This document shows, one piece after another, positions 21,974-35,215 of a DNA stretch of 64,000 nt; within the stretch, counting starts at the first letter, position 1; the number at the start of each line of letters is the position of its first letter. The DNA is from an uncultured bacterium (GTDB lineage Bacteria > Joyebacterota > Joyebacteria > Joyebacterales > Joyebacteraceae). The translations under genes were made by a program, and so were the position numbers. Under the pieces are notes generated by a model that saw nothing but the letters and a program-made list of their open reading frames with translations, was not told the origin of the DNA and did not search any database. Where the stretch lies: positions 3,141 through 67,140 of the forward strand of contig CAZFRO010000005.1 in assembly GCA_964521425.1 (NCBI GenBank), read 5' to 3'.

Positions 21974-23020
21974 CTACGAGATGTGGACGCTTCCGTCACC
22001 CTTTGAGACATGCCCAATCACGAACGTCTCATGGCCGTTGGTCTCAAGAGCCTTCTTGATGCCACTGGCTGCCCCTCTGTCGACAATGAGAACAAGACCG
22101 ATACCCATGTTGAGAGCCCGATAGGCCTCGCCGATGGTGAGTTCGCCAATCGACTCGAGGAACTTGAATATGGGAAGCGGCTCCCAGGAGGACACGTTGA
22201 TCTGGGCATCACAGCTCTCGGGCAAGACCCTCGCCACGTTGTCGTAGAGTCCGCCGCCGGTGATGTGAGCCAGCCCGTGAAGGTGATTGTCACCGAGGAG
22301 CGGCTCGACGGCGCTCAAGTACTCGCGGTGAATCTTCAGAAGCTCCTCGCCCACCGTGCAGCCCAGATCGGGCACTCGCGAATCGACCGTCAGCCCCTCT
22401 TCCTCGAAGAGAAGGTGACGCGCAAGCGAGTAGCCGTTCGTGTGAAGCCCGGTGGATGGTAGGCCCAGAAGGACGTCGCCAGGTCCGATGGGAGGAACAC
22501 CGTCGACATCGTCCTTCCTCACGATGCCGATCATGCATCCTACGAGGTCGATCTCGCCCACGCAGTATACGCCCGGCATCTCCGCCGTCTCCCCCGCGAG
22601 CAGATTGCACCCGATTACCCGACAGGCCTCGGCCATGCCCTGAACCGTCTCCGCTACGTGCTCGGCAGTGATAGCAGCACTCGCGAAGTAGTCGGCGAAG
22701 ATCAGTGGCCGTGCGCGCTGAACAAGGAGATCATCGACACAGTGGTTCACGAGATCCTGCCCGACCGTGTCGTAGCGCCCCTGCATGGCTGCGATCTTGA
22801 GCTTCGTCCCCACCCCGTCGATCGTCACCGCGAGGATATCGCGGCCGCACCCAGCCTTGGCCAGATCGTAGAGCCCAGCGAAGGCGCCGTAGTCGCAGCA
22901 GACGTTCTCGTCCCACGTCGACCGCACGGCCGACCCCATCAGCTTCACGGCGTCCATCCCAGCATCGATGTTGACGCCGGCGCGGGAGTACGCGGTCTCG
23001 GTGGTCTGTTTGTCTTTCAC
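21974..23020 (-). CDS. purM: Phosphoribosylformylglycinamidine cyclo-ligase (AIR synthetase)
   Basis: SRAGVNIDAGMDAVKLM N-terminus and PurM N/C domain motifs (GGLYDLAKAG..., HITGGG...) across the full length. Confidence 0.9.
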   Translation of the reverse strand: MKDKQTTETAYSRAGVNIDAGMDAVKLMGSAVRSTWDENVCCDYGAFAGLYDLAKAGCGRDILAVTIDGVGTKLKIAAMQGRYDTVGQDLVNHCVDDLLVQRARPLIFADYFASAAITAEHVAETVQGMAEACRVIGCNLLAGETAEMPGVYCVGEIDLVGCMIGIVRKDDVDGVPPIGPGDVLLGLPSTGLHTNGYSLARHLLFEEEGLTVDSRVPDLGCTVGEELLKIHREYLSAVEPLLGDNHLHGLAHITGGGLYDNVARVLPESCDAQINVSSWEPLPIFKFLESIGELTIGEAYRALNMGIGLVLIVDRGAASGIKKALETNGHETFVIGHVSKGDGSVHIS

Positions 23021-23091: not shown

Positions 23092-26000
23092 CTACTCCTT
23101 GTCCGGGGTCAGATTCAATCTCGCTATCTTCTTGAGAAGTCCCTGCCTGCTTAGCCCGAGTGCTTCGGCAGTCCGCGACTTGTTCCACTTGTACTGCTCT
23201 AGCATCTGCAGGATGACTCTGCTCTCCACGCCCTCGACCATGTCCTTGAGTGAAAGCTGGACACCCGGCCTTGGTGGCTTGATGGTCACTTCAACGGAAC
23301 GGAATCTCTCCGAGAGCGACTGCGCGGATATCGGCACGCGCGGCTTGGACAGTGCAACAGCTCGCTGGATCTCGTTCTCCAGTTCTCGCACATTGCCTGG
23401 CCAGTCATAGTTCACGAGAACGTCCATCGCATGATCGGTGAAGCCAGAGATGTCCTTGTTGCACTCGTCGGAGAAGAGATCGAGGAAGTGCTGGGCCAAG
23501 AGCGGGATATCATCTCTCCTCTCCCTGAGAGCCGGCATGCGGATGCGGACCACATTCAGGCGGTAGAAGAGGTCCTCACGGAAGTGTCCCGCTTTCACCT
23601 CCCCATCAAGCAGCTTGTTGGTGGCGGCGATTATGCGAACATCCACGTCGATGCAGTCTGTCGCCCCGACTCTGCGGATCTCGCCCTCCTGCAGGACGCG
23701 CAATAGCTTCACCTGAAGCGCCTGCGGCATATCCGCGATCTCGTCGAGGAAGAACGTCCCCCGATTGGCCGATTCAAAGAGCCCCGTCTTCTCTTTCAGC
23801 GCCCCCGTGAATGCGCCGCGGACGTGACCGAAAAGCTCGCTCTCGAGCAACTGCTCCGGGAGCGCCGCGCAGTTCTGAGGCACAAAGCGGGCATGCTTGC
23901 GGGAGCTGTTGTGGTGGATGGCGCGGGCAACGAGTTCCTTCCCCGTCCCTGATTCACCTTCTATGAGCACTGTGACTGATGTGGCCGCGACCTTCTGAAG
24001 AAGAGAGAAGAGTTGCTGCATCTTGGCGCTTCGGCCAATGATATTCGCAAAGGAGAATCGACTGTCGACTTCCCAGCGAAGCGTCTCCAGTTCCTCCTCC
24101 AGATCAGCACGCAGCCGGACATTGTCTATTGCGGTCGCTGCCTGTGCGGCCAGAGCCTCGACAAAGCGCACATCTTCGTGGGAGAACGTTGTGTCTCTCT
24201 TTTGATAGTCGAGGTAGATGAAACCGATAAGCTGCTCCCGCAGCGTCATCGGGACGACAAGCAGGCTCCTCAGATCATGATCGACAACGAGTGCCGTGAG
24301 CGCAGGGGAGCATTGATCATCGCGTGTGACTCGGATGATCGGCTCACCCTCCGCCAGGTGTTCAAGAAGCACAGGCACAGACTCTTGCATCTCCAGCTCC
24401 ACTCCCTCGCGCACGCAGAGCGACGACTGACAAGTGATCCCTTTCGACCCGGGCTGCAGGAGGTGCACCACAACTGTCTCAGCAGGAATACCTGCAGCGG
24501 CAATGTCCGCCAGCTCGCGCGCGGCATCTCCCTGTGATTCCGACGATGCCAACACCTGGCTTGATCTGTAGAGCGACGCAAGATGCTCTCGCTCGCCCGG
24601 AAGCTCAGCTGCGGGAAGCTGGAGAGCCCTAGCCATCAGCGCGAGTTCTTCCTGGATTACTCGCGTGTCTCGCCGGGCGCCGAGATTCCGAAAGATGTCC
24701 CGGGATTCCTCGAGCAGTGCCACGGCATCGCGCAGTTCGCCTCTCTCGCGTTCGACCCGAGCCGTCGCCGCCAATGACTGGGCAAGCTCATACGGCGCCT
24801 TGATTGCCCTGAGTGTCTCTGTGGCTTCGCCGCACAGCCCCAGAGCTCGGTTCAACTCGCCATCGCGTGTCGCTATCTCGCCCAGAACGCGAGCTGAGTT
24901 GGCGGCTTCGAGGCGGTTCTCGATCCTCGTCGAGAGCTTGCGTGACTCTTCAGCGGACTCACGTGCCTCCCGGTGCCTTCCCTGAGCCAAGAGCGCCTCT
25001 GCTCGGGCACGGAGTAGCTCCGGGAGATCATCGACGCTCCTCATCTCATTCATGAGCACCTCAGCTCGACCGTAGTACCCGAGCGCGAAACCGGGATTGC
25101 CACAGGCGAGTTCGAGCTGGCCTAGGTCGACGAGGATCATCGCAAGACCCCACTGATCCCCTGCCTGCTCCGCCCAAGAGGAGGCATCGTGGAGACACTG
25201 CGCTGCCTTCTTGTATACGCCGCGACGAGCCCAGAGACACCCCATGTTCAGGAGCGCGAGCTGCAACTGATACAAGTCACCTGCGCGTGAGGCCAGCAGT
25301 AGTGCCTCCGCAAGATACTGCTCCGCCGCTTCCCAGTTCCCCAAGCGCATGCTCGTCCACCCTGCATTGCTCAGATAGATGCTCAGGGGAGTATTGACGC
25401 TGCCGTCCCCGCGAGATGCCTCCACAGCGCGAAGAGACCATGCCAAGGATGATTGCCACTCGCATAAGGCATGGAGAGCATTGCTCTTGGAGGTGTAGCT
25501 CCGAGCTATGAGATCAGTCCTGCCGGAACCCTCAAGCAGAACGATGCTCTCATCGGCAAGCTGGTCTGCCTCGCGGAACTCACCCCTCGCACAATGCACG
25601 ATGCAGAATGAGAGCTGAATGCCGGCCGTTCGGATTCTGTTCTTACTCTCCGTCGACAACTTGAGCGCTCTATCTAATGCACGCAGAGCCCCATCGGGAT
25701 CCCCACTGAGTGTAGCGGCCCTCCCCAGCAGCCACAGGAGTTCGATGAGCTCGTCCTTGGACTCTGGTTGATTCCGCGCTGCCACGTCCAGGCCGAGCCG
25801 GGACACTCTGGCACATAACGACGTTCTGCCTGCGCGCCAGTAGCCGGCAGACAGGTGGACCAGCGAGGACAGAACGCGACCAGGCACATCGCTGGTAGCA
25901 GCCAGTACCGTCTCCAGGAGACCGAGGTAGCACTCCGATTCATCGAGCTGCTCTGCATCGAGAGCACTGATGGTCATATCGACTGCGATGGGCAGAGCGT

Positions 26001-27951
26001 CGCCATGCCGTCCCGCACAGGTCAGGTGCCATGCCACGGCTCCGTCGCGTCCCTCCTCTGGAGGATCATCGTCGCAGGGCTCACCAAGAACCCGGGCTAC
26101 TTGTTCGTGCAGCTTTCGCTTCAAGTCTGCATCGGATTCGGGCCACAACAGTCGCCTGACAAGATCGGCGGTCAGGGAACGGACGTCGCGAAAGCGCGGG
26201 AGCGAGGCAAGACCGAGCGCGGCCAGTCGCTGAATCGCTTCATCCACATCCAGCGCTGGGAGACCGGTAATCCGGACGATTGTGTCACCGGTTATTCCGG
26301 GTCCCAGAGCGACAACACGTGCGACCTCCAACTCGGCGTTAGAGAGACCCGCCAACCGGGTTCTGAGCATCTCAGATATCGAATCTGGGACACCTGCCTC
26401 GTCTGCTCGACACACGTCGAGCGCGAGACCCTCTGGGGACCTTTGAAGGCAGCCCCTCGAAGCCAAGTACCCAGTCAGCTCCCTGACGAATCGAGGGCTG
26501 CTGTCCGTGTGCTCGACCAACCAGTCGATAAGCCCGCTGCATGGCGCCGTGCCCGTGGTTTCCCCAACCAGGAGACCGACGTCGTACCAGAGCATAGTGC
26601 CGATTTCCTCGAACTGAACCGTGAGTGGTTCCCCAAGTACGTTCCTCCCAACCCCCGACCACGCCAAGTCGGATTCAGAGGAGACCTGATCGCACATAAC
26701 AAGCAAGAGCATTGGACCCTTCACTGCGGAGGTCTCCGCAATGATGATCTCAAGATCCTCAGGAGACAGGGTCTCGATTCCATCCACAAGGACAACGGTG
26801 GGTCCCTTGGAGCCAGCGTGTGAACCTGAGTCTGCGGTCCAAGCGACAGAATGCTCCGACTCTGAGGGGCTCCCGCTCCCGGCTTGACGCCGAGTGTCCC
26901 AAGAGACCTCCGCGAACCTGCCGCCCTCGGCAAGCGCCTCTATCCGACACAGCTGACCCAGTGTGCTCTTGCCCACACCCCTTGGACCCACGAGAACGAG
27001 AGCATGCCCACCACGGCGCTCGGCTCGGCGCTTGCCCCAACCGAACAGATGGAGAGCGTCGTCACGCATCACGATCCCACTGCCGCGTCTGTGCGGTTCA
27101 TCCAGACCCAAGGCCGCAAGATCTACACCGCGAAGGAGCCCCCTGGCCTCCTGAGCTCCTCGGGGTCTCAGAGCCTCTTCGGACGACAGTATCTTGGCTA
27201 GCACGTCCTGAAGTCCAATCGGAAGCTCGGGTCTGATCTCGGACAGCATCTCAATCGGATCGGGAGATCCACTTGGGTTCCCCTCCAACGCACTGAACAG
27301 AAGTTCGATGATGATTCTGCCAACTGAGAGAAGATCGGCATGTGCTCCGCTTTCAGACCGCGGAGCCAATTCGAGCGGCGATCGAGAGGTGCCATCGAAC
27401 CCTTGGCAGGACCTTCGACGCCATGCGCGGTGGAATCCGATCACGTGCACTGAGACGGGCATCGTGGAATCACTGCCAGTCGATACCCACACGCAATCAC
27501 GCGTGAGTGCGGTGTGTGCCAGACCAACTGCATGCACGTAATCGAGAAAGCCAAGAAGCGAATCAAACAGGGATGTGATGCTGTCGATGTCGGCGCCTGA
27601 CTTGGCCCAACTGCTGAGGGACTGCCACGGTCCATCTGATTCCAGAAAGAGACCCGGAGTATGAACAGATCGAGGGGAAAGGCCAAGGACTCGGGGAATG
27701 AGGGGATGAGACAATCTGGATAATGTGCGAAACTCCCTGAGCAGTCCAGACAGCAGCGGGGAACTACTGCCTCTCGTGTGTGCCAGGAGTTCGACGCCGA
27801 CGGTATCCCCCGTCTGCGTGTTGCGACCCTGCCACAGCTCAACACCATTGACGTTGCCGAGCTGCTTCACGAGCTCGCAGTCGAATGGTTGGTCCCCGTC
27901 ACATGCAATACGATGATTGCGCTTCTCACAACGACCACTCTCTGATGTCAT
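23092..27951 (-). CDS. Giant (1619 aa) sigma-54-dependent transcriptional activator: pseudokinase-like + STAND-like P-loop NTPase + TPR + GAF + sigma-54 AAA+ + Fis HTH
   Basis: N-terminal kinase-like domain with degenerate catalytic residues (VGVELLAHT instead of VAIK; LAHTALTRDCVWV instead of HRDLKPEN). Walker A GPRGVGKST. TPR-like repeats in the middle. GAF-like segment (LLVVPMTLREQLIGFIYLDY...). Sigma-54 interaction domain (LIEGESGTGKELVARAIH...ESELFGHVRGAFTGA...GTFFLDEIADMP...FREDLFYRLNVV). C-terminal HTH (RTAEALGLSRQGLLKKIARL). Confidence 0.8.
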   Translation of the reverse strand: MTSESGRCEKRNHRIACDGDQPFDCELVKQLGNVNGVELWQGRNTQTGDTVGVELLAHTRGSSSPLLSGLLREFRTLSRLSHPLIPRVLGLSPRSVHTPGLFLESDGPWQSLSSWAKSGADIDSITSLFDSLLGFLDYVHAVGLAHTALTRDCVWVSTGSDSTMPVSVHVIGFHRAWRRRSCQGFDGTSRSPLELAPRSESGAHADLLSVGRIIIELLFSALEGNPSGSPDPIEMLSEIRPELPIGLQDVLAKILSSEEALRPRGAQEARGLLRGVDLAALGLDEPHRRGSGIVMRDDALHLFGWGKRRAERRGGHALVLVGPRGVGKSTLGQLCRIEALAEGGRFAEVSWDTRRQAGSGSPSESEHSVAWTADSGSHAGSKGPTVVLVDGIETLSPEDLEIIIAETSAVKGPMLLLVMCDQVSSESDLAWSGVGRNVLGEPLTVQFEEIGTMLWYDVGLLVGETTGTAPCSGLIDWLVEHTDSSPRFVRELTGYLASRGCLQRSPEGLALDVCRADEAGVPDSISEMLRTRLAGLSNAELEVARVVALGPGITGDTIVRITGLPALDVDEAIQRLAALGLASLPRFRDVRSLTADLVRRLLWPESDADLKRKLHEQVARVLGEPCDDDPPEEGRDGAVAWHLTCAGRHGDALPIAVDMTISALDAEQLDESECYLGLLETVLAATSDVPGRVLSSLVHLSAGYWRAGRTSLCARVSRLGLDVAARNQPESKDELIELLWLLGRAATLSGDPDGALRALDRALKLSTESKNRIRTAGIQLSFCIVHCARGEFREADQLADESIVLLEGSGRTDLIARSYTSKSNALHALCEWQSSLAWSLRAVEASRGDGSVNTPLSIYLSNAGWTSMRLGNWEAAEQYLAEALLLASRAGDLYQLQLALLNMGCLWARRGVYKKAAQCLHDASSWAEQAGDQWGLAMILVDLGQLELACGNPGFALGYYGRAEVLMNEMRSVDDLPELLRARAEALLAQGRHREARESAEESRKLSTRIENRLEAANSARVLGEIATRDGELNRALGLCGEATETLRAIKAPYELAQSLAATARVERERGELRDAVALLEESRDIFRNLGARRDTRVIQEELALMARALQLPAAELPGEREHLASLYRSSQVLASSESQGDAARELADIAAAGIPAETVVVHLLQPGSKGITCQSSLCVREGVELEMQESVPVLLEHLAEGEPIIRVTRDDQCSPALTALVVDHDLRSLLVVPMTLREQLIGFIYLDYQKRDTTFSHEDVRFVEALAAQAATAIDNVRLRADLEEELETLRWEVDSRFSFANIIGRSAKMQQLFSLLQKVAATSVTVLIEGESGTGKELVARAIHHNSSRKHARFVPQNCAALPEQLLESELFGHVRGAFTGALKEKTGLFESANRGTFFLDEIADMPQALQVKLLRVLQEGEIRRVGATDCIDVDVRIIAATNKLLDGEVKAGHFREDLFYRLNVVRIRMPALRERRDDIPLLAQHFLDLFSDECNKDISGFTDHAMDVLVNYDWPGNVRELENEIQRAVALSKPRVPISAQSLSERFRSVEVTIKPPRPGVQLSLKDMVEGVESRVILQMLEQYKWNKSRTAEALGLSRQGLLKKIARLNLTPDKE

Positions 27952-28003
27952 TCACTCCTCCCTGCACCCTCTCCACAACCCATGATCCAGTCGCTGATCC
28001 AGC

Positions 28004-29284
28004 TCAGGACTTCTTGGTCCTGACTTCCACACCTCCATCAGAGATGAGTTTGAGGAAGACGTCGACCACTCGAGCATCGAAATCGGTCCCCCTCCCCTGT
28101 CGCAACTCCTCCAACGCTACATCTGTGTCCAAACCCCGCCTGTAAGGGCGATCAGACGTCATCGCGTCAAATGCGTCCGCCACCTTCACGATGCTCGCCT
28201 CAAGCGGAATCTCACTGCCCTCAAGACCATCGGGATAGCCCTTTCCATCACAGCGTTCGTGATGATAGAGCACAACCTCGCGCGCACCCTTCAGGAAGTG
28301 AAGATCGGAGACGATTCTGGCGCCGGTCTCCGGGTGCGTCCGCATCTCTTTCCATTCATCATCGCTGAGTTTCCCCGGCTTGAGGAGCACATCGTGCTGT
28401 ATCGCGATCTTGCCCATGTCATGAAGGAGGCTGGCGTACTCGACTATTAGTACACGCCGTTCGGACAGCCCCATTCGCCGGGCTATGCTCGTCGAGTACT
28501 CGGTCACTCGCTCGGAGTGACCACTCGTGAACGGGTCGCTCGCATCAATCGCCGACGTGAGAGCTCTCACCGTGTTCATGTGGGCTTCACGCATGTCCAT
28601 GTAGAGCTTGAAGGAGTAGCGTGCCAGCATGAGCGGAAACAGGAAGAGAGCTACGCCGGGAATGCCGACATGGAGGTAGATCACGACCATGATCGCGCCC
28701 AGTGGAACGAAACCGACGAGATGCGTGGCAGTAGTCCAGAGGTATGTGCGCTGCCATACGCGCCATGGGTTCGTGTGCTGGATAAGCGAGATCACGAAGC
28801 TGACGCCAAAAGTATCCACAAGGAAATACGTGGCTCCGCAGGCCGCCAAGGGGAGAATCAACTCAGTCACATTCGGGGTCAGGTAACCGCCCGCCTTTTC
28901 GAAGACGAACCCGGCCGCGAAGATCATGACAATGAAGAGAGATGCATTGAAGAGCACTTTGTACATCGGCTGCTTCGCTGCCGACGCGGCCACGGTGACG
29001 ATTGTCGAGATGATAGCTGCGACAACCGGTCCGAAGATGACGATGGCGGCATAGTCCAGCGCAGATGATACCGTGATGTAGGCACTGGAGCCCGGCAGTG
29101 TGATCGGACTGAGCTCTGCGGCGAAGGCGAAGAGCAGCCACCACAGAACTGGAGCCCAGGAATCAACATGGACTGTGGGGAACTTCCATACCGCCAGGAC
29201 AAGCCCAAGCCCCACTATGAGGAAATAGTAGAGTCTGAACCAGACCGTTGTCCCCTCGAAGGGACTTGCCGTGGAGTCACTCAA
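28004..29284 (-). CDS. 7TM-sensor HD-GYP domain c-di-GMP phosphodiesterase
   Basis: About seven N-terminal TM helices. C-terminal HD-GYP (LLHDMGKIAIQHDVLLKPGKLSDDEWKEMRTHPETG...VVLYHHERCDGKGYPDGL...VADAFDAMTSDRPYRRG). Confidence 0.8.
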   Translation of the reverse strand: MSDSTASPFEGTTVWFRLYYFLIVGLGLVLAVWKFPTVHVDSWAPVLWWLLFAFAAELSPITLPGSSAYITVSSALDYAAIVIFGPVVAAIISTIVTVAASAAKQPMYKVLFNASLFIVMIFAAGFVFEKAGGYLTPNVTELILPLAACGATYFLVDTFGVSFVISLIQHTNPWRVWQRTYLWTTATHLVGFVPLGAIMVVIYLHVGIPGVALFLFPLMLARYSFKLYMDMREAHMNTVRALTSAIDASDPFTSGHSERVTEYSTSIARRMGLSERRVLIVEYASLLHDMGKIAIQHDVLLKPGKLSDDEWKEMRTHPETGARIVSDLHFLKGAREVVLYHHERCDGKGYPDGLEGSEIPLEASIVKVADAFDAMTSDRPYRRGLDTDVALEELRQGRGTDFDARVVDVFLKLISDGGVEVRTKKS

Positions 29285-29502
29285 ATCAAGAACCTTGTGG
29301 TGGGGCGGGCCGACATCATCCTAGTCGCTACAACCAGCCTGATTTACCGGCCAGCACGATGTCATATAGGAATCTGAAGAAGAACAAAATTCCACCTCCT
29401 CGCGTCGTAAGCTACCCTTGGAAGCTACTGCTCATCTCTGACATGATGTCCACGTTCCAAGGGCAATAGGGGACGCTTCGCTGTGAGGTCGAATTCGCTT
29501 CG

Positions 29503-30321
29503 CTAGTCCTCCTGTACACTAGTCTCAGATGCCGGCCCGATGATCTCATATTCTGTTGGCACTTTGCGCCGAAGGCGCCGCAGATATCTATTTACCGCAT
29601 CAAGCGTAGCGAGCGCTGCCGCAAGCACTGGATCTCCGTTCACGGCACACGCACCGATCAGTTGTTTCTCCTGCCTGTCGGCGACGTGGATGACAGCTGT
29701 AACGACAATTGGAGTTCCACCGATCGTCACCTGCTCAATCGCATTCACCGCCAGGAGGCCCGCGTCGTCAAGAAGCTGCTGTATGGCCTTGATGACGGCC
29801 TCGGACACGGACCGCAGAATCGATGCTGGTGCGTCCGCACCGGCGACTGATGCCACGGTCTCGCCATCACCCAAGGCAAGCTCCACGCGTGCCTCGGCCA
29901 TATTCTGTGACTGAGCCACGCTTACGCCCACGAACTCGACACGGCGTTCACTCGTCTCAAGATGGCGGGCAGGTGCTGGAGCCTGTGGATTCTCGGCCTG
30001 TGGCCCTTCTTCCTTAGGACCGGAGTGCACAGGCTCATCGTCATCAACGAGCGCCACGCTTATCTTCCGATGATCCACAGGGAAGCCAAGCTTGGCCACC
30101 ATCAGCGAGCCGACATCACGCGCGACCTGCTTCGCGCTCCGTGCCGTTCCCGCGACAACGTGTATCTCGAGGATTCCTCCCCTATCGTCTGCCACGACTC
30201 GTGCCGATCTCACATCGTGCAGGCTGACCAGAGCCTGCTCAACATCGCCGATGGGCACAACGCGGTCGCTTGCCTTGAGAAGTATGGCGCCGCCTCCTGC
30301 TAGCTCATGGGTTCGTGGCAC
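29503..30321 (-). CDS. Hypothetical protein (272 aa) with two loosely similar halves; no recognisable family
   Basis: Long ORF with codon usage like its neighbours. Immediately upstream of the HD-GYP gene on the same strand. No signal peptide. Pro/Glu-rich central linker (PKEEGPQAENPQAPAPA). Confidence 0.45.
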   Translation of the reverse strand: MPRTHELAGGGAILLKASDRVVPIGDVEQALVSLHDVRSARVVADDRGGILEIHVVAGTARSAKQVARDVGSLMVAKLGFPVDHRKISVALVDDDEPVHSGPKEEGPQAENPQAPAPARHLETSERRVEFVGVSVAQSQNMAEARVELALGDGETVASVAGADAPASILRSVSEAVIKAIQQLLDDAGLLAVNAIEQVTIGGTPIVVTAVIHVADRQEKQLIGACAVNGDPVLAAALATLDAVNRYLRRLRRKVPTEYEIIGPASETSVQED

Positions 30322-30986
30322 TCAAGGTGCCGCTCGCGGCCTGAATCTACAATAAACTACGTTGTCGGGAGGAAAGTCAAGAGCTAACGCCTGCATCGGC
30401 GGCAACGACCTCTCGCACACACTATGCTTGTCGATTTCAGCTTGACAGCGAAGGGGAATCATGTCACACATCCGAGGGTGGAAGCAACGATATGGCGAAT
30501 GGGTGACTGCAGGCATCCCTATTGAGGAGGTGTAGCATGGGAATGCGGGGATGGCGACCATCGGCGACGCTGCTGACCGCCATGATCGCGCCTGATGTTG
30601 GGGTGGCGCCGAGTTGCACCAGCCCTGATGACCTCAAGTGCGGTCTAGGATACCGTGAGCCCCAAGAGCAAGCGTCTACCGCTCACCCGTGCGAATTCGA
30701 GATCCGGCCGAGATAGGGCTCTGCGCAGACTGAGGACGGACTCACACCCCCTTGCTCGCTTTCGCTTCGTGGGATTTCCTGCCACTCAACGGGATTCCCG
30801 TTGAGCCACCGGGTCCAGGGCTCCCCGATTCCAACCTTCGGATGAGGATTGTGAGGGCGATGACGGAGGCAACAGGAGGCTCAGGTTGCAGCGGAGTATT
30901 CCTCCTGAGGAGCGCTAGGAGCCCGCCGGATCGGTTCGACATCGAAGCAGCGTTCACCTACCCTATCACGCGAGGAGGTACCCCCG

Positions 30987-31871
30987 TTGAATTTGAAGCC
31001 AATCTCCAGCTGCGCGGCCACTCTTATTGCTGGTGCACTGATGCTCTCGGTGATGCCAGGCTGTGGCAATGCCGAGAGCGGAAATGCACCGTACGACATC
31101 GACACTCTCCAGCCTGGAGAGCGAGCACTGGTTACGCTCCCTCTCGAGTTCGATATCGTGTCGTCGAACAGGCTGTACGTTGATGGCGTGCTAGTCAAAC
31201 ACGCTCTTCTCACGACGGAGGACGGTGGCTCGCTCTTCCTCAACGGAACACCGATTCTCCCTCACAGGCCGTGCCCAGAGGGACCGCCGTTGCCCGAGGA
31301 GACATACGAGCGGGTCTACGGGGCCGTTCCATATGTTCAGGAACTCGTGGAATCAGGTGCCTCGGCGAGAGAGGCCGGGCAGGCGTATCTGGCTGCAAAG
31401 AGGAGAGTAGTTGGCAGACTGCATGAGCTGTACCTTGCTGCTCGCGAGTCTGGAAAGGACCGAGACGCTGCGGGGACCGTGGCTTTCGATGCTCTTAGGG
31501 ACCTAGACGAGGCGAGTCTGATTGACTGGGACGGCGAGGTCACGCAGAGCTACAACATGTTTATCGTCACCTGGAGAGGAATGAGAGGAGAGGAAGAGAT
31601 CCTGTTCGTGGACTCCGGGCCGGAGAGGCTCCAGGCACCGAGCGAGGAGGCGAAGCAGCGTCTCGCCACGCGGCTCTACGAACTGCTCGGCCGGGGTGGC
31701 GCACCGTGCTGGTACGTCATCACGTGCAGCAGCACGTCTATCGACATAGGGACGGAAGCCGTCGCCAAGACGCAAGCTCATCTCGATGAGGCAAGGCAGA
31801 CCGGGGTGATCGAGGGCGGTGCTCTGTCGAAGCTCGCAGTCGAGCAGATACTTGCCAATGAGGGGAGGTGA
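30987..31871 (+). CDS. Hypothetical lipoprotein
   Basis: Lipoprotein signal MNLKPISSCAATLIAGALMLSVMPGC. The stop overlaps the start of the downstream giant cargo gene. Confidence 0.5.
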   Translation: MNLKPISSCAATLIAGALMLSVMPGCGNAESGNAPYDIDTLQPGERALVTLPLEFDIVSSNRLYVDGVLVKHALLTTEDGGSLFLNGTPILPHRPCPEGPPLPEETYERVYGAVPYVQELVESGASAREAGQAYLAAKRRVVGRLHELYLAARESGKDRDAAGTVAFDALRDLDEASLIDWDGEVTQSYNMFIVTWRGMRGEEEILFVDSGPERLQAPSEEAKQRLATRLYELLGRGGAPCWYVITCSSTSIDIGTEAVAKTQAHLDEARQTGVIEGGALSKLAVEQILANEGR

Positions 31872-34800
31872 GCGAGATGCCGAGTAGATTGACATGCTTA
31901 GCGATGTGCTTGGGCCTGCTCATCGCGTCCAGCTCACCCGCGCTTGCCGAATCCGCCGGGATCTTCGACATGTGCGACTGGGAAAACGACCATCTGAACT
32001 ACGATGACGCGGTGCTTGAGCGGTGCATTGCGGCGAAGGACACGTGGGATATCCTCGCTGGGATGGTCAGGGTGCGTCAGGAGAGCAGTCTTGACAACGA
32101 CCCGGCGGCCAGCTTGCTGACGTGGCAAGACCTTGTCGCCGGCAGCACCGCCGTGGACATCACTTCACACGGGGGCAGTGGCGGCTCCCTGGCGGCGGAG
32201 TTCTATGCAGACGAGACCGTCAGAGACGCCGTCTTCGATCAGTACACGCACGAGGAGACCGGTGGGTATGGGGTGTCCCAGATCAGGGTTGGGACCGTCG
32301 TCAGTCCTCCCGACACAGCCTACACTATCACATGGAAGGCTCAGGGCATTTCTGACTTCCTCTCCTCCGCCGCCCTCGGCATCTCATCGCGGGCGATCCT
32401 CTTCGGGGACTACTGCGCCAGCTGCACGAGCGCATACCAGTGGGGATTGGATTTTAGTGGGTCATGGTGGCCCATCGGTGGTGCGATGTTCTGCTACACG
32501 GAGTCTCAGCCCTCCGATCCGCTGACAGACTATCGCGAGAACCTCTACGGTGCGATGAGCTCTCTGGGCTGCTATGTCCTCGGGCGGGATTCGAGTGTGG
32601 GCGACGCAGAGGATGAGATCACCGAAGAAGGTTCAGACGTAGATATCACGGTTCTGGGTGACCGTGAGAGCAGCTACCACTTGGATGAGGACTGCCACAA
32701 CCCCGCCGCCGCCTTCGACGGTGCCTTTGCGTTCGATGGGAAGATCGTGTTCCGAACTGCCTACGAGGCGGGGTCGATCTGTCACTTCGTGATGGGAGTG
32801 GACTCGTGGCGAGACGTGAACGTGAAGGACTGGACTTCATGGGATGTGCTCGCACGTGTAAGACCGGAGGGAGGGCGAGGAGTCGCCCAGCTCTACGAGG
32901 TTGACGACGTGCCTGACAAGGCCGCCTACCGGATCGTGGAGGTGGACCGCTACGGTCGTCCAACGTTCTCACCGGTCTTCGTACATGGCGCGAAACCGGC
33001 GGCGTACGACGAGTGGCTGGCGCATCCGGCTGTCGTGGCTGTGGTAGACAACAAGCATGGGATGTCGTCGGGGCTCTACCACTGGGTATCGGGTCGGAGG
33101 GTGCGCTATGGCCACGAGTTCACCTCGCCTGGAGAGGATGGGCACACGGGGAGTTCGGATGGAGGTCCGAGCTTCGCAAGCCGAGCCGACTCGAGCGGGT
33201 GCGCGGACATCATCGTGTACACGAATGCAGACTACGATAGCTTGCTCTTGCCCGTGGAGGATCACCTCTCCCACTACTCAGGCAAGAAGGTCCTTTACTT
33301 CCTAGGAAGCTCCAGCTTGGCCGACGCACAAACGTGCTACGGCGACGTTCACTCAAGCAACGTGGCGTACAATCAGGCAACAGGTACCGATAGGTTCCCA
33401 ACGGATGCCCCAGGGCCACTTCTGCTGCTCGTGGGCGACTCCTATCCGAGTATCATAGTATCGCACGACAGCTTCCCTGACGAGCATGACAGGTGCCAGT
33501 ATCCGTGCTTCTCGGATCGCGACGCCACGGATGTTCTGGGATCCGGCCCGATTGGACTTGTGCATCGCATCCCTGCTGATACCGTGGCTGAGGTAGAACG
33601 AGCATGTGCTGGGGCCTACGACTGGAACCGTGGGGATCATGTAGATCCAAACTGGAGCACCATCGAGGTTGTCGGGAACCGATTGGGCGACTCAATCACT
33701 GAGTGGCCGATTGAGATGGCCGACGATGCCGCATCGAAATTCATGGGAATGGGTTGTCTGGCGAAGCCGCCTCTCGTGGAGGGAGACTACCCCTATTCGC
33801 AACAGGGCACATTGGACAAGTGGGCAGACTTCGATGCTCAACTTGACGACGGTGCCGCGATGCTATGGGGCTTCGGCCGCGTCACGGACGCGCTCTATGA
33901 CGCAAGCTACGGTGGATGGGCTGGTCACTTCGTGCACAAGCCGGACACAACTGCGAACCGGACCCAACAACGCATCGTGGCGATGATGCCAGGTTGCACG
34001 ACAGTCGGAGTCTGGAAGGACAACACCTATGTGACTTCGCTTGTCGAGCGGTGGATGTACTTCGATCCGCGGTTCACTCAGATCGTTGGCACGGTCGGGC
34101 ATCTCACTGGCGGGTGGGAGCACCAGCACCGGAAGGCCGAGGAACTGTACATGGACGCGTGGCGCGAGGCCCCCAAGGATGCACCTCTTGATTGGGTAGT
34201 CTGGCGGGCGACGCAGATGGCGGAGGAGCAGGGCCTCTACTGGATGGAGGACTACTTCAGATCGGCCGCCACAATCGGTGGCTACGTTCTGGCTCGACCA
34301 GGAGGGGGCTGGAGTACGTCGGCCATTGTGACGGAGGCCGACTCTCTTGTGTTCTGCCCTTCGGGATGCGGCCAGTCACATGCTGACTCCATTACTATCA
34401 TCGTGACAGTGAAGGACAAGACGACCGGGATCCCTGTGGTTGGAAAACCTCCGGAGGACATCCGCGTAAGTGCGTGGTCGGAGGAAGGCTTCTCGTTGGT
34501 CTGTGAGGATACATGCTACATTCTGCCCTGCCTGCATCCGCCATCCCCCACGGATGAGAATGGGCAGGCGTTCATCCCCCTGAACCGAGCCGGTGGTCAC
34601 GGTCCCGGCGCATTCTTGAGTGTCAACGTCAACTTCCCGGCCAGTGGGTATTCGATCGGTAGGACCATCGATCTGGAGGCCAAGTCGCCCGACATCAACG
34701 GCGACGGCTCTGTCGACCCGATTGATTTCGGCCGCTTCGGCACCGACTTCAGCGAAGGGGTGGGGTGGCGTTCGGATTTCGACTACGACGGAGATGTCGA

Positions 34801-35215
34801 CCCGATCGACTTCGCGAGGTTCTCCGCGCACTTCGGCCACAGCTGCGGGAGCAGACAAACGTCACAGATTCCTCCAGAGCTGCTGGCGCAGCTCGGCCTG
34901 GCGCCGCCCGGCGTGGAGGGCGATCAGCTTCCTGCGGTCTACGATCTCGATCAGAACACGCCGAACCCATTCAACCCTGTTACGTCCGTCAGGTACGCGG
35001 TTCCTCGTCCGGGTGGACGCGTGAAGATCGAGGTCTTCGATGTCGCGGGCAGGCATGTCACGACGCTAGTCGACGCCGAGAAGGAGCCTGGGTGGTACGT
35101 TGCCGCGTGGGATGGAACCGACGATGAGGGACATCGCGTGTCATCGAGCGTGTACTTCTGCAGGATGGAGGCGGCGGGGTTCTCCGAGAGCCGCAAGCTC
35201 GCGCTCGTCAAGTGA
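31868..35215 (+). CDS. Giant (1115 aa) secreted T9SS cargo protein with dockerin-like repeat pair; function unknown
   Basis: Signal peptide (MPSRLTCLAMCLGLLIASSSPALA). Dockerin-type Ca-binding repeats (DINGDGSVDPIDFGRF, DFDYDGDVDPIDFARF). C-terminal ~150 aa (dockerin + IPPELLAQLG linker + sorting domain TPNPFNPVTSVRYAV...IEVFDVAGRHV...VYFCRM...KLALVK) is shared with the 17124 cargo. Confidence 0.6.
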   Translation: MSEMPSRLTCLAMCLGLLIASSSPALAESAGIFDMCDWENDHLNYDDAVLERCIAAKDTWDILAGMVRVRQESSLDNDPAASLLTWQDLVAGSTAVDITSHGGSGGSLAAEFYADETVRDAVFDQYTHEETGGYGVSQIRVGTVVSPPDTAYTITWKAQGISDFLSSAALGISSRAILFGDYCASCTSAYQWGLDFSGSWWPIGGAMFCYTESQPSDPLTDYRENLYGAMSSLGCYVLGRDSSVGDAEDEITEEGSDVDITVLGDRESSYHLDEDCHNPAAAFDGAFAFDGKIVFRTAYEAGSICHFVMGVDSWRDVNVKDWTSWDVLARVRPEGGRGVAQLYEVDDVPDKAAYRIVEVDRYGRPTFSPVFVHGAKPAAYDEWLAHPAVVAVVDNKHGMSSGLYHWVSGRRVRYGHEFTSPGEDGHTGSSDGGPSFASRADSSGCADIIVYTNADYDSLLLPVEDHLSHYSGKKVLYFLGSSSLADAQTCYGDVHSSNVAYNQATGTDRFPTDAPGPLLLLVGDSYPSIIVSHDSFPDEHDRCQYPCFSDRDATDVLGSGPIGLVHRIPADTVAEVERACAGAYDWNRGDHVDPNWSTIEVVGNRLGDSITEWPIEMADDAASKFMGMGCLAKPPLVEGDYPYSQQGTLDKWADFDAQLDDGAAMLWGFGRVTDALYDASYGGWAGHFVHKPDTTANRTQQRIVAMMPGCTTVGVWKDNTYVTSLVERWMYFDPRFTQIVGTVGHLTGGWEHQHRKAEELYMDAWREAPKDAPLDWVVWRATQMAEEQGLYWMEDYFRSAATIGGYVLARPGGGWSTSAIVTEADSLVFCPSGCGQSHADSITIIVTVKDKTTGIPVVGKPPEDIRVSAWSEEGFSLVCEDTCYILPCLHPPSPTDENGQAFIPLNRAGGHGPGAFLSVNVNFPASGYSIGRTIDLEAKSPDINGDGSVDPIDFGRFGTDFSEGVGWRSDFDYDGDVDPIDFARFSAHFGHSCGSRQTSQIPPELLAQLGLAPPGVEGDQLPAVYDLDQNTPNPFNPVTSVRYAVPRPGGRVKIEVFDVAGRHVTTLVDAEKEPGWYVAAWDGTDDEGHRVSSSVYFCRMEAAGFSESRKLALVK

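Follow-up and report, generated by a model that had tools for sequence, protein, structure and literature searches.

Small receiver, GAF, PAS or V4R domains usually control bacterial enhancer-binding proteins (EBPs), either by keeping the AAA+ ring apart or by favouring its formation, and STAND proteins too work by regulated oligomerisation. Among the latter, in MalT and the related PknK an N-terminal P-loop nucleotide-binding oligomerisation domain (NOD) precedes a helical arm and a sensor of TPR-like repeats. PknK carries in addition an N-terminal Hanks kinase, and activation, as described for MalT, proceeds by inducer- and ATP-dependent multimerisation (PMC4381067). In a 64,000-nucleotide stretch of DNA from an uncultured bacterium (contig CAZFRO010000005.1 of assembly GCA_964521425.1; hereafter the window), a single gene encodes a 1619-residue protein, the activator, in which what is predicted to be a whole STAND switch is placed ahead of a canonical sigma-54 AAA+ module, behind a kinase-like domain whose catalytic residues are replaced. 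On balance, we take this protein to be probably a cytoplasmic one-component regulator, whose NifA/ZraR-type sigma-54 output would be governed by a MalT/PknK-style STAND switch, with input from the HD-GYP enzyme encoded next to it; the reading is built on analogy with the described systems.

These systems each match part of the activator. With MalT of Escherichia coli and PknK of Mycobacterium tuberculosis it shares the NOD, the arm and the TPR-like sensor, and with PknK also the N-terminal kinase domain, but its output is a GAF–sigma-54 AAA+–HTH_8 module rather than a LuxR-type helix-turn-helix (HTH), its kinase domain appears dead, its NOD Walker B motif reads D-G, and its scores for AAA_16 and TPR_MalT fall below the gathering cut-offs. 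EBPs of the NifA/ZraR/FhlA type have in common with it the GAF domain, the sigma-54 AAA+ domain with its GAFTGA motif and the Fis-type HTH, whereas the activator has about 1120 extra N-terminal residues. EpsI/Nla24 and FleQ are EBPs that respond to cyclic di-GMP (c-di-GMP) (PMC8316039). VpsR is another c-di-GMP-responsive EBP. The activator resembles them as an EBP that may be tied to c-di-GMP metabolism, a tie that in its case runs through the gene neighbourhood only.

Domain organisation of the activator

The activator, its domains and the partner gene are arranged as follows:

23092..27951, minus strand: the activator, a multidomain sigma-54 EBP; whole open reading frame (ORF) with ATG start, 1619 aa, from ORF and translation
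27097..27891, minus strand: pseudokinase domain, residues 21-285; predicted Hanks-kinase fold with the catalytic Lys, Asp, Asn and Asp replaced
26182..27066, minus strand: STAND-like NOD, residues 296-590; P-loop NTPase, helical domain and winged helix (predicted), with Walker A GPRGVGKS(T) and Walker B VVLVD-G
24592..26166, minus strand: helical arm and TPR sensor region, residues 596-1120; Pfam TPR_12 and TPR_2
24121..24528, minus strand: GAF domain, residues 1142-1277; Pfam GAF (1144-1275), GAF_2 and GAF_3, E about 3e-11, above cut-offs
23296..24042, minus strand: sigma-54 interaction AAA+ domain and lid, residues 1304-1552; PF00158 E 1.6e-71, AAA_lid_14 E 9e-25
23119..23235, minus strand: Fis-type HTH_8, residues 1573-1611; PF02954 E 1.6e-9, 37.8 bits against a cut-off of 22, aligned to the ZraR DNA-binding domain
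28004..29284, minus strand: MASE9-HD-GYP phosphodiesterase, directly upstream of the activator, 52-nt gap

The ATG of the activator is preceded, at a distance of 6 nt, by the Shine-Dalgarno sequence GGAGG. Judged by its motifs, the C-terminal third of the protein is a canonical EBP of the NtrC/NifA family. The Sigma54_activat profile (PF00158) is matched over its full length at residues 1304-1470 with 239.8 bits (cut-off 20.2), and the AAA+ motifs are found at GESGTGKE 1332, ESELFGH 1370, GAFTGA 1379, FFLDEIADM 1400, IIAATN 1440, FREDLFYRL 1457 and GNVRELEN 1519. The Walker A, Walker B (DE), GAFTGA, sensor and arginine-finger motifs all align to those of ZraR, NifA and FleQ, and the core matches ZraR (1OJL) at E 2.9e-90, NifA at 9e-81 and FleQ at E 9.4e-75. 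TIGR01817 (nifA) aligns over residues 1123-1539 below its cut-off, and because none of the NCBIfam equivalog models reaches its cut-off, the activator is not an orthologue of any named EBP. The nearest solved GAF domains, those of DosT/DevS, match only weakly, so that they point to no particular ligand.

Ahead of this output module, residues 290-740 are STAND-like in their predicted structure. The AlphaFold (AF2) model of this region (predicted local distance difference test, pLDDT, 80) shows the arrangement by which STAND proteins are defined (PMC4381067), a nucleotide-binding domain followed by a helical domain and a winged helix, and its top Foldseek matches are Apaf-1, CED-4, the plant NLR resistosomes Roq1, RPP1 and Sr35, SAMD9 and Cdc6/ORC (E 3.5e-7 to 5e-4). 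The Walker A motif, GPRGVGKS at residue 322, is intact, and none of the 16 aligned sequences departs from the pattern GxxGxGK[ST]. Pfam AAA_16 stays sub-threshold on the NOD (24.1 bits, cut-off 32.6), as does TPR_MalT behind it (38.8 bits, cut-off 45). TPR_12 reaches 68.7 bits (E 5e-19, 6 stretches) and, together with TPR_2, spans residues 737-1047 above the gathering score.

The N-terminal domain is, by sequence and modelled fold, a pseudokinase, in which the fold is kept and the chemistry appears lost. The isolated N-terminus has no match in Pfam even at E<=10, Pkinase included, and its kinase homology is visible only through a clade profile and a fold search. An exhaustive HMMER search with residues 1-727 against 1.84 billion representatives gave 452 relatives; a word-indexed search with the same 727 residues returned zero matches despite the presence of an identical protein in that database, which is a prefilter artefact. 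When only the 11 closest N-termini are combined into a profile, this matches the solved Hanks kinases StkP and Aurora A over the entire domain at E 5e-17, and nine of these 11 relatives match Pfam Pkinase individually. The AlphaFold model of the domain (pLDDT 75, predicted template-modelling score 0.76) has M. tuberculosis PknB (1MRU) as its best Foldseek match, with E 3.6e-12 and template-modelling (TM) scores of 0.61-0.67. In alignment with the kinase-bearing relatives, the VAIK Lys is replaced by E54, the HRD Asp by A148 and the catalytic-loop Asn by C153, DFG has become G172-F-H174 and APE has become APR198, and the Gly-rich loop reads GNVNGV. Since the Gly-rich loop, the VAIK Lys, the HRD Asp, the Asn and the DFG Asp are all replaced, the domain would belong to the Hanks family by fold and not as an enzyme.

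At the very start of the protein, a Cys8-His13-Cys17-Cys25 pattern (residues 8-25; 27877-27930, minus strand), kept in the three closest orthologues only and modelled with low confidence, may form a small metal-binding knuckle.

The original prediction, made from the letters of the window alone, had described most of this anatomy. The 1619-residue ORF at 23092..27951 exists on the minus strand as it stated, the motifs that it quoted (GESGTGKE, ESELFGH, GAFTGA, GPRGVGKS) are all present, and its parsing into pseudokinase, STAND-like NTPase, TPR, GAF, sigma-54 AAA+ and HTH is confirmed by Pfam, the clade profile and the models. Its kinase-like start with replaced VAIK lysine and HRD aspartate agrees with the motif table, the clade profile and the AlphaFold/Foldseek results, and its P-loop NTPase followed by TPR-like repeats with the GPRGVGKS motif, the STAND-like model and the TPR_12/TPR_2 matches above cut-off.

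Distribution of the architecture

A full-length search recovered proteins of 1400-1800 aa with Pkinase, AAA_16, TPR, GAF, Sigma54_activat and HTH_8 domains (P0005-P0013, P0026/27). Further proteins of this architecture include P0057, P0062, P0063, P0096, P0173 and others, and at least 25 database clusters share it. Some of them are named 'sigma 54-interacting transcriptional regulator' and come from Polyangiaceae or Myxococcota metagenome-assembled genomes (MAGs), and a sigma-54 domain is present in 15 more proteins among the best 150 of the 452 N-terminal relatives. The original prediction had been aware of no such kinase-to-sigma-54 combination; the architecture is thus not unique. The activator is a variant of an already databased, apparently unstudied architecture and not a new kind of protein.

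These relatives have the same six-module order as the activator and a similar length, and homology is detectable over the kinase, NOD, TPR, GAF and AAA+ domains, with identity outside the AAA+ domain of only about 25-30%. They differ from it in two respects. The K, HxD..N, DFG and APE motifs are canonical in most of them, so that, by their sequences, these are probably active kinases, and an HD-GYP neighbour is absent in the three loci examined. In comparison, the degenerate kinase is confined to the clade of the window (P0001, P0002, P0004, P0047, P0050, P0051 and P0053). Among genome records a Candidatus Eisenbacteria MAG comes closest, and the pseudokinase form belongs to that lineage.

The HD-GYP partner gene

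The gene directly 5' of the activator encodes an HD-GYP enzyme with a membrane-embedded sensor. Its HD_5 match is strong (131.8 bits, cut-off 27.2, E 2.8e-38), MASE9 is matched with 33 bits (cut-off 24.3) and hydropathy indicates 6-7 hydrophobic segments. The catalytic motifs, HD at residue 288 and HHERCDGKGYP at 341, are intact. PmGH (4MCW), which acts on c-di-GMP, and V-cGAP3 (5Z7C), which acts on 3'3'-cyclic GMP-AMP (3'3'-cGAMP), share this catalytic domain with its HD and HHExxDGxGYP motifs at E about 1e-40 each; the sensor of the partner gene is a multi-pass MASE9 domain, in contrast to the REC or GAF-like domain of these two enzymes. As the HD-GYP domain is equally close to both (E 5.8e-41 for PmGH and 1.2e-40 for V-cGAP3), its sequence favours neither substrate.

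Here the original prediction needs correction. The seven-transmembrane HD-GYP neighbour on the same strand that it had named is there, with MASE9, HD_5, 6-7 hydrophobic segments and intact motifs, but it is not downstream of the activator: on the coding minus strand it lies upstream, and the gene downstream is purM. A hypothetical protein and a 665-bp non-coding region had been placed upstream, and upstream they are, although both lie 5' of the HD-GYP gene.

Proposed mechanism and alternatives

Anatomy, selection pattern and neighbourhood are what we observe at this locus; the functional steps set out here follow, by analogy, MalT and EBPs generally. In the resting state, a closed, nucleotide-bound NOD, clamped by the arm and the TPR sensor, would block oligomerisation, and the C-terminal AAA+ modules would then be unable to form the hexameric ring that remodels the sigma-54 holoenzyme. 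Engagement of the TPR or GAF sensors by a ligand or partner would open the NOD and trigger multimerisation, which would gather the AAA+ modules at HTH-bound enhancer sites and lead to transcription from -24/-12 promoters. The dead kinase domain would serve as a docking or allosteric module rather than as an enzyme. Encoded just upstream, and probably on one transcript with the activator, the membrane MASE9-HD-GYP enzyme would most likely supply an envelope-derived input, either through an altered cyclic dinucleotide pool or by direct contact.

Several observations weigh against this scheme. The TM-scores of the NOD matches are low (0.3-0.45), and a sequence profile of the region compared with the PDB gives generic P-loop and TPR matches only. 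In the sub-clade of the window the Walker B motif is D-G, as against DD or ED in most aligned relatives, and SSP stands in place of the GNP motif of the family; the NOD may therefore bind nucleotide and yet barely hydrolyse it, or be partly degenerate. A scan of the window for TGGCAC-N5-TTGCW with up to 2 mismatches, which follows a suggestion of the original prediction, gave 21 sites where 24 are expected by chance and thus no enrichment, and no rpoN was identified within the window, the only stretch covered. The residues of FleQ that contact c-di-GMP, which we take to be the Arg of LFRS, the R-N behind Walker A and ExxxR, are not conserved in the AAA+ alignment, where FRS is FAN, ARN is ARA and E..R is H..L. 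Four of the five contact positions differ accordingly (R144 to A, N186 to A, E330 to H, R334 to L). We found no publication on the kinase-sigma-54 architecture or family, which is weak evidence, as few subscription journals were covered. Finally, the order argS, hypothetical gene, HD-GYP, activator, purM is kept in two other loci (L002 and L006).

The last point matters most for the input step. With argS, the hypothetical gene and purM syntenic too, the adjacency of the HD-GYP gene could be inherited gene order, and adjacency alone does not prove coupling. The HD-GYP gene might then be a mere syntenic neighbour, and the activator might take its input from some cytoplasmic ligand or partner unrelated to that gene and sensed by the TPR or GAF domains, with no cyclic dinucleotide involved. 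We think this unlikely, but take it seriously: the conserved block includes housekeeping genes, the FleQ-type residues are absent, the GAF domain offers no ligand clue, and in L006 as many as 308 nt separate the two called genes. Against it speaks the persistence of the pair. The HD-GYP gene is directly 5' of the activator in all six loci of the lineage examined (the window, L001, L002, L004, L005 and L006), and the pairing outlasts divergence of the activator to 35-40% identity. Between the window and L006 the two proteins and PurM have diverged to the following identities:

Activator: 35%
HD-GYP protein: 61%
PurM: 62%

The gaps of 47-59 nt in four further loci suggest one transcript, and no terminator-like site was reported in the 52-nt gap of the window. 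An HD-GYP neighbour is absent in three of three loci with intact kinase motifs, so that the pairing coincides with the pseudokinase form. Of the signalling operon linking c-di-GMP turnover to sigma-54 that the original prediction had envisaged, the pairing stands, in six of six loci, whereas the c-di-GMP link is conjectural: the FleQ contacts are absent, the promoter count is at chance level, and the HD-GYP domain is as close to a 3'3'-cGAMP enzyme as to a c-di-GMP one.

Alternatively, the activator could itself be a cyclic dinucleotide receptor, with its GAF domain or the vestigial pocket of the pseudokinase binding c-di-GMP, 3'3'-cGAMP or pGpG at a level set by the HD-GYP enzyme, which would thereby gate sigma-54 transcription directly. 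The conserved gene pair, the intact catalytic motifs of the HD-GYP domain and its equal nearness to c-di-GMP and cGAMP phosphodiesterases would all fit, and EBPs that bind c-di-GMP exist in EpsI/Nla24 and FleQ (PMC8316039). This reading nevertheless seems improbable, as four of the five FleQ contact positions differ and the loss of the glycine loop and the Lys argues against a nucleotide in the kinase pocket. We also know of no GAF domain of this type that binds a cyclic dinucleotide.

Selection and integrity of the coding sequence

The orthologues of the activator in L001 and L002, at 79% identity, are each an intact 1619-codon ORF (the 1399 aa called by JGI in L002 merely reflect a later start choice), and zero frameshifts or stops occur in the orthologues. 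The ratios of nonsynonymous to synonymous substitution rates (dN/dS), computed per domain among the orthologues of three genomes with equal ORF length (1619 aa), were as follows:

Pseudokinase: 0.23-0.29
NTPase: 0.22-0.42
TPR: 0.09-0.19
GAF: 0.13-0.16
Sigma-54 AAA+: 0.05-0.10

The N-terminal half evolves fastest, all values are well below 1 (<0.45), and purifying selection acts on all domains of the activator.

These values bear on the view that the N-terminal 1100 residues are a relic of a kinase-STAND ancestor and that the protein acts as a simple GAF-regulated, NifA-like activator. The N-terminal domains do change faster, by a factor of two to five, than the C-terminal domains (dN/dS 0.22-0.42 compared with 0.05-0.16), the kinase motifs are lost, the Walker B and GNP motifs are degenerate in the sub-clade, and a segment between Walker A and Walker B that other family members have is absent. 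A decaying relic is nonetheless a very unlikely account: dN/dS is well below 1 in every domain, no orthologue has a frameshift or stop, the fold is predicted with good confidence, the Walker A motif is invariant in the 16 aligned sequences, and the N-terminal region is kept over deep divergence.

We give hardly any credence to the remaining views, that two genes were joined into a chimeric ORF during assembly, as the metagenome-type assembly might invite and the original prediction had allowed for, or that the kinase-like domain phosphorylates non-canonically, as some eukaryotic 'pseudokinases' that keep activity might suggest. A chimera is ruled out by the dN/dS values and the intact full-length orthologues, and misassembly is likewise rejected in view of the even GC along the ORF (0.58-0.62), a 100% identical protein (P0001, on 4 contigs of the public collection), the occurrence of the identical protein on several contigs from Logan, ENA, NCBI and JGI, and a domain order common to distant family members. 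An active kinase is contradicted by the glycine loop being replaced together with all four catalytic residues.

The leader of the HD-GYP gene

Three conserved features are found in the leader of 218 nt that separates the HD-GYP gene from the hypothetical gene. Two of them are:

29328..29387, minus strand: small ORF of 19 aa, LFFFRFLYDIVLAGKSGWL; TTG start, strong Shine-Dalgarno sequence GGAGGTG, unannotated, hydrophobic
29413..29465, minus strand: RNA hairpin with an 11-bp stem; GTCAG[A/C]G in the loop, GAGAGTCAGCGG in 4 of 8 loci

The small ORF (19-20 codons) is kept at the protein level, with third-position changes, in eight loci and ends in G-[KR]-[ST]-[GS]-W; its product may be a small membrane peptide acting with the MASE9 domain. 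The hairpin is present in eight loci (the window, L001, L002, L004, L005, L006, L011 and L012), an exact DNA pattern from the leader having recovered three more loci. Compensatory changes occur in 6 of its 11 pairs, 97.7% of the alignment cells are paired as against 31-60% in slid controls, and its covariation score was reached by 0 of 500 shuffles. No T-run follows the stem, and an Rfam search of the window and the leader gave no match. The hairpin may be a cis-regulatory element.

The third feature is a repeat, AGCGAAGCG, which occurs twice right behind the stop codon of the hypothetical gene (29466-29502, minus strand) and recurs with small changes in L001, L002, L005, L006, L011 and L012. 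The small ORF, the hairpin and the repeat may belong to the same unit as the HD-GYP and activator genes.

A bolder form of the preferred reading would place all these elements in a single circuit of the Eisenbacteria, in which a structured leader RNA, a 19-residue membrane micro-protein, the MASE9-HD-GYP enzyme and the activator together convert an envelope signal into STAND-driven assembly of the AAA+ ring. We offer this only tentatively, as a doubtful conjecture. The coupling step might use a cyclic dinucleotide, or the dead kinase domain might be contacted directly.

Surrounding genes

The genes that flank the pair are:

21974..23020, minus strand: purM, TIGR00878 E 1.3e-94; downstream of the activator with a 71-nt gap, and downstream in L002 and L006 too
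29503..30321, minus strand: conserved hypothetical protein of about 267-272 aa; first gene of the syntenic block, start codon uncertain

purM is probably context and not part of the signalling unit. The hypothetical protein has weak LeuA_dimer-like matches (the LeuA allosteric domain) and no relative in the PDB, and its orthologues, 52-86% identical, are in the same position in L001, L002 and L006. Its conserved N-terminus seems to start at an ATA/ATT codon, 7 nt past AGGAGG, and the start codon of the gene may be non-canonical.

A perfect palindrome, GGCAC-N5-GTGCC (GGCACCTTGAGTGCC), lies at 30317-30331, about 35 nt upstream of the Shine-Dalgarno sequence of the hypothetical gene. L001 and L002 share it, L006 and L011 lack it, and a TTGAC element further upstream is more widely kept. 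The palindrome may be read as a weak -24/-12-like site, an operator or a hairpin of the 5' untranslated region. Sigma-54 autoregulation through GGCACCTTGAGTGCC was considered and set aside as unsupported, with the palindrome found only in the two closest relatives and TTGAC conserved instead, and no conserved sigma-54 promoter candidate was found beside the activator locus.

The neighbourhood examined, which extends roughly 11 kb on one side and 7 kb on the other, has genes for a sulfatase, TonB, a glycosyltransferase and secreted proteins with type IX secretion system (T9SS) tails, and the locus lies amid several genes for secreted FlgD_ig/Por_Secre_tail proteins. Two ORFs occupy 30987-35215 on the plus strand, between the hypothetical gene and a 620-aa T9SS-tailed protein, one of 294 aa without a Pfam match and one of 1115 aa that ends in FlgD_ig. 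Neither has an equivalent there in L001 or L002, which indicates a local insertion or rearrangement.

Biological significance

The activator, which comes from an uncultured phylum, combines two known kinds of protein, the bacterial EBP and the STAND switch, and introduces no new regulatory principle. If the proposed mechanism is right, the family, with its dozens of clusters, shows two oligomerising ATPases coupled in one chain, and sigma-54 activation joins the list of STAND outputs. Should the single-circuit form also hold, it would represent an undescribed way of gating an EBP, with one oligomerising ATPase switching on another in the same polypeptide. The Eisenbacteria form allows a natural comparison between family members that keep and those that lose the catalytic kinase motifs, and the locus suggests, in a form open to testing, what a MASE9-HD-GYP protein may do in an uncultured phylum.

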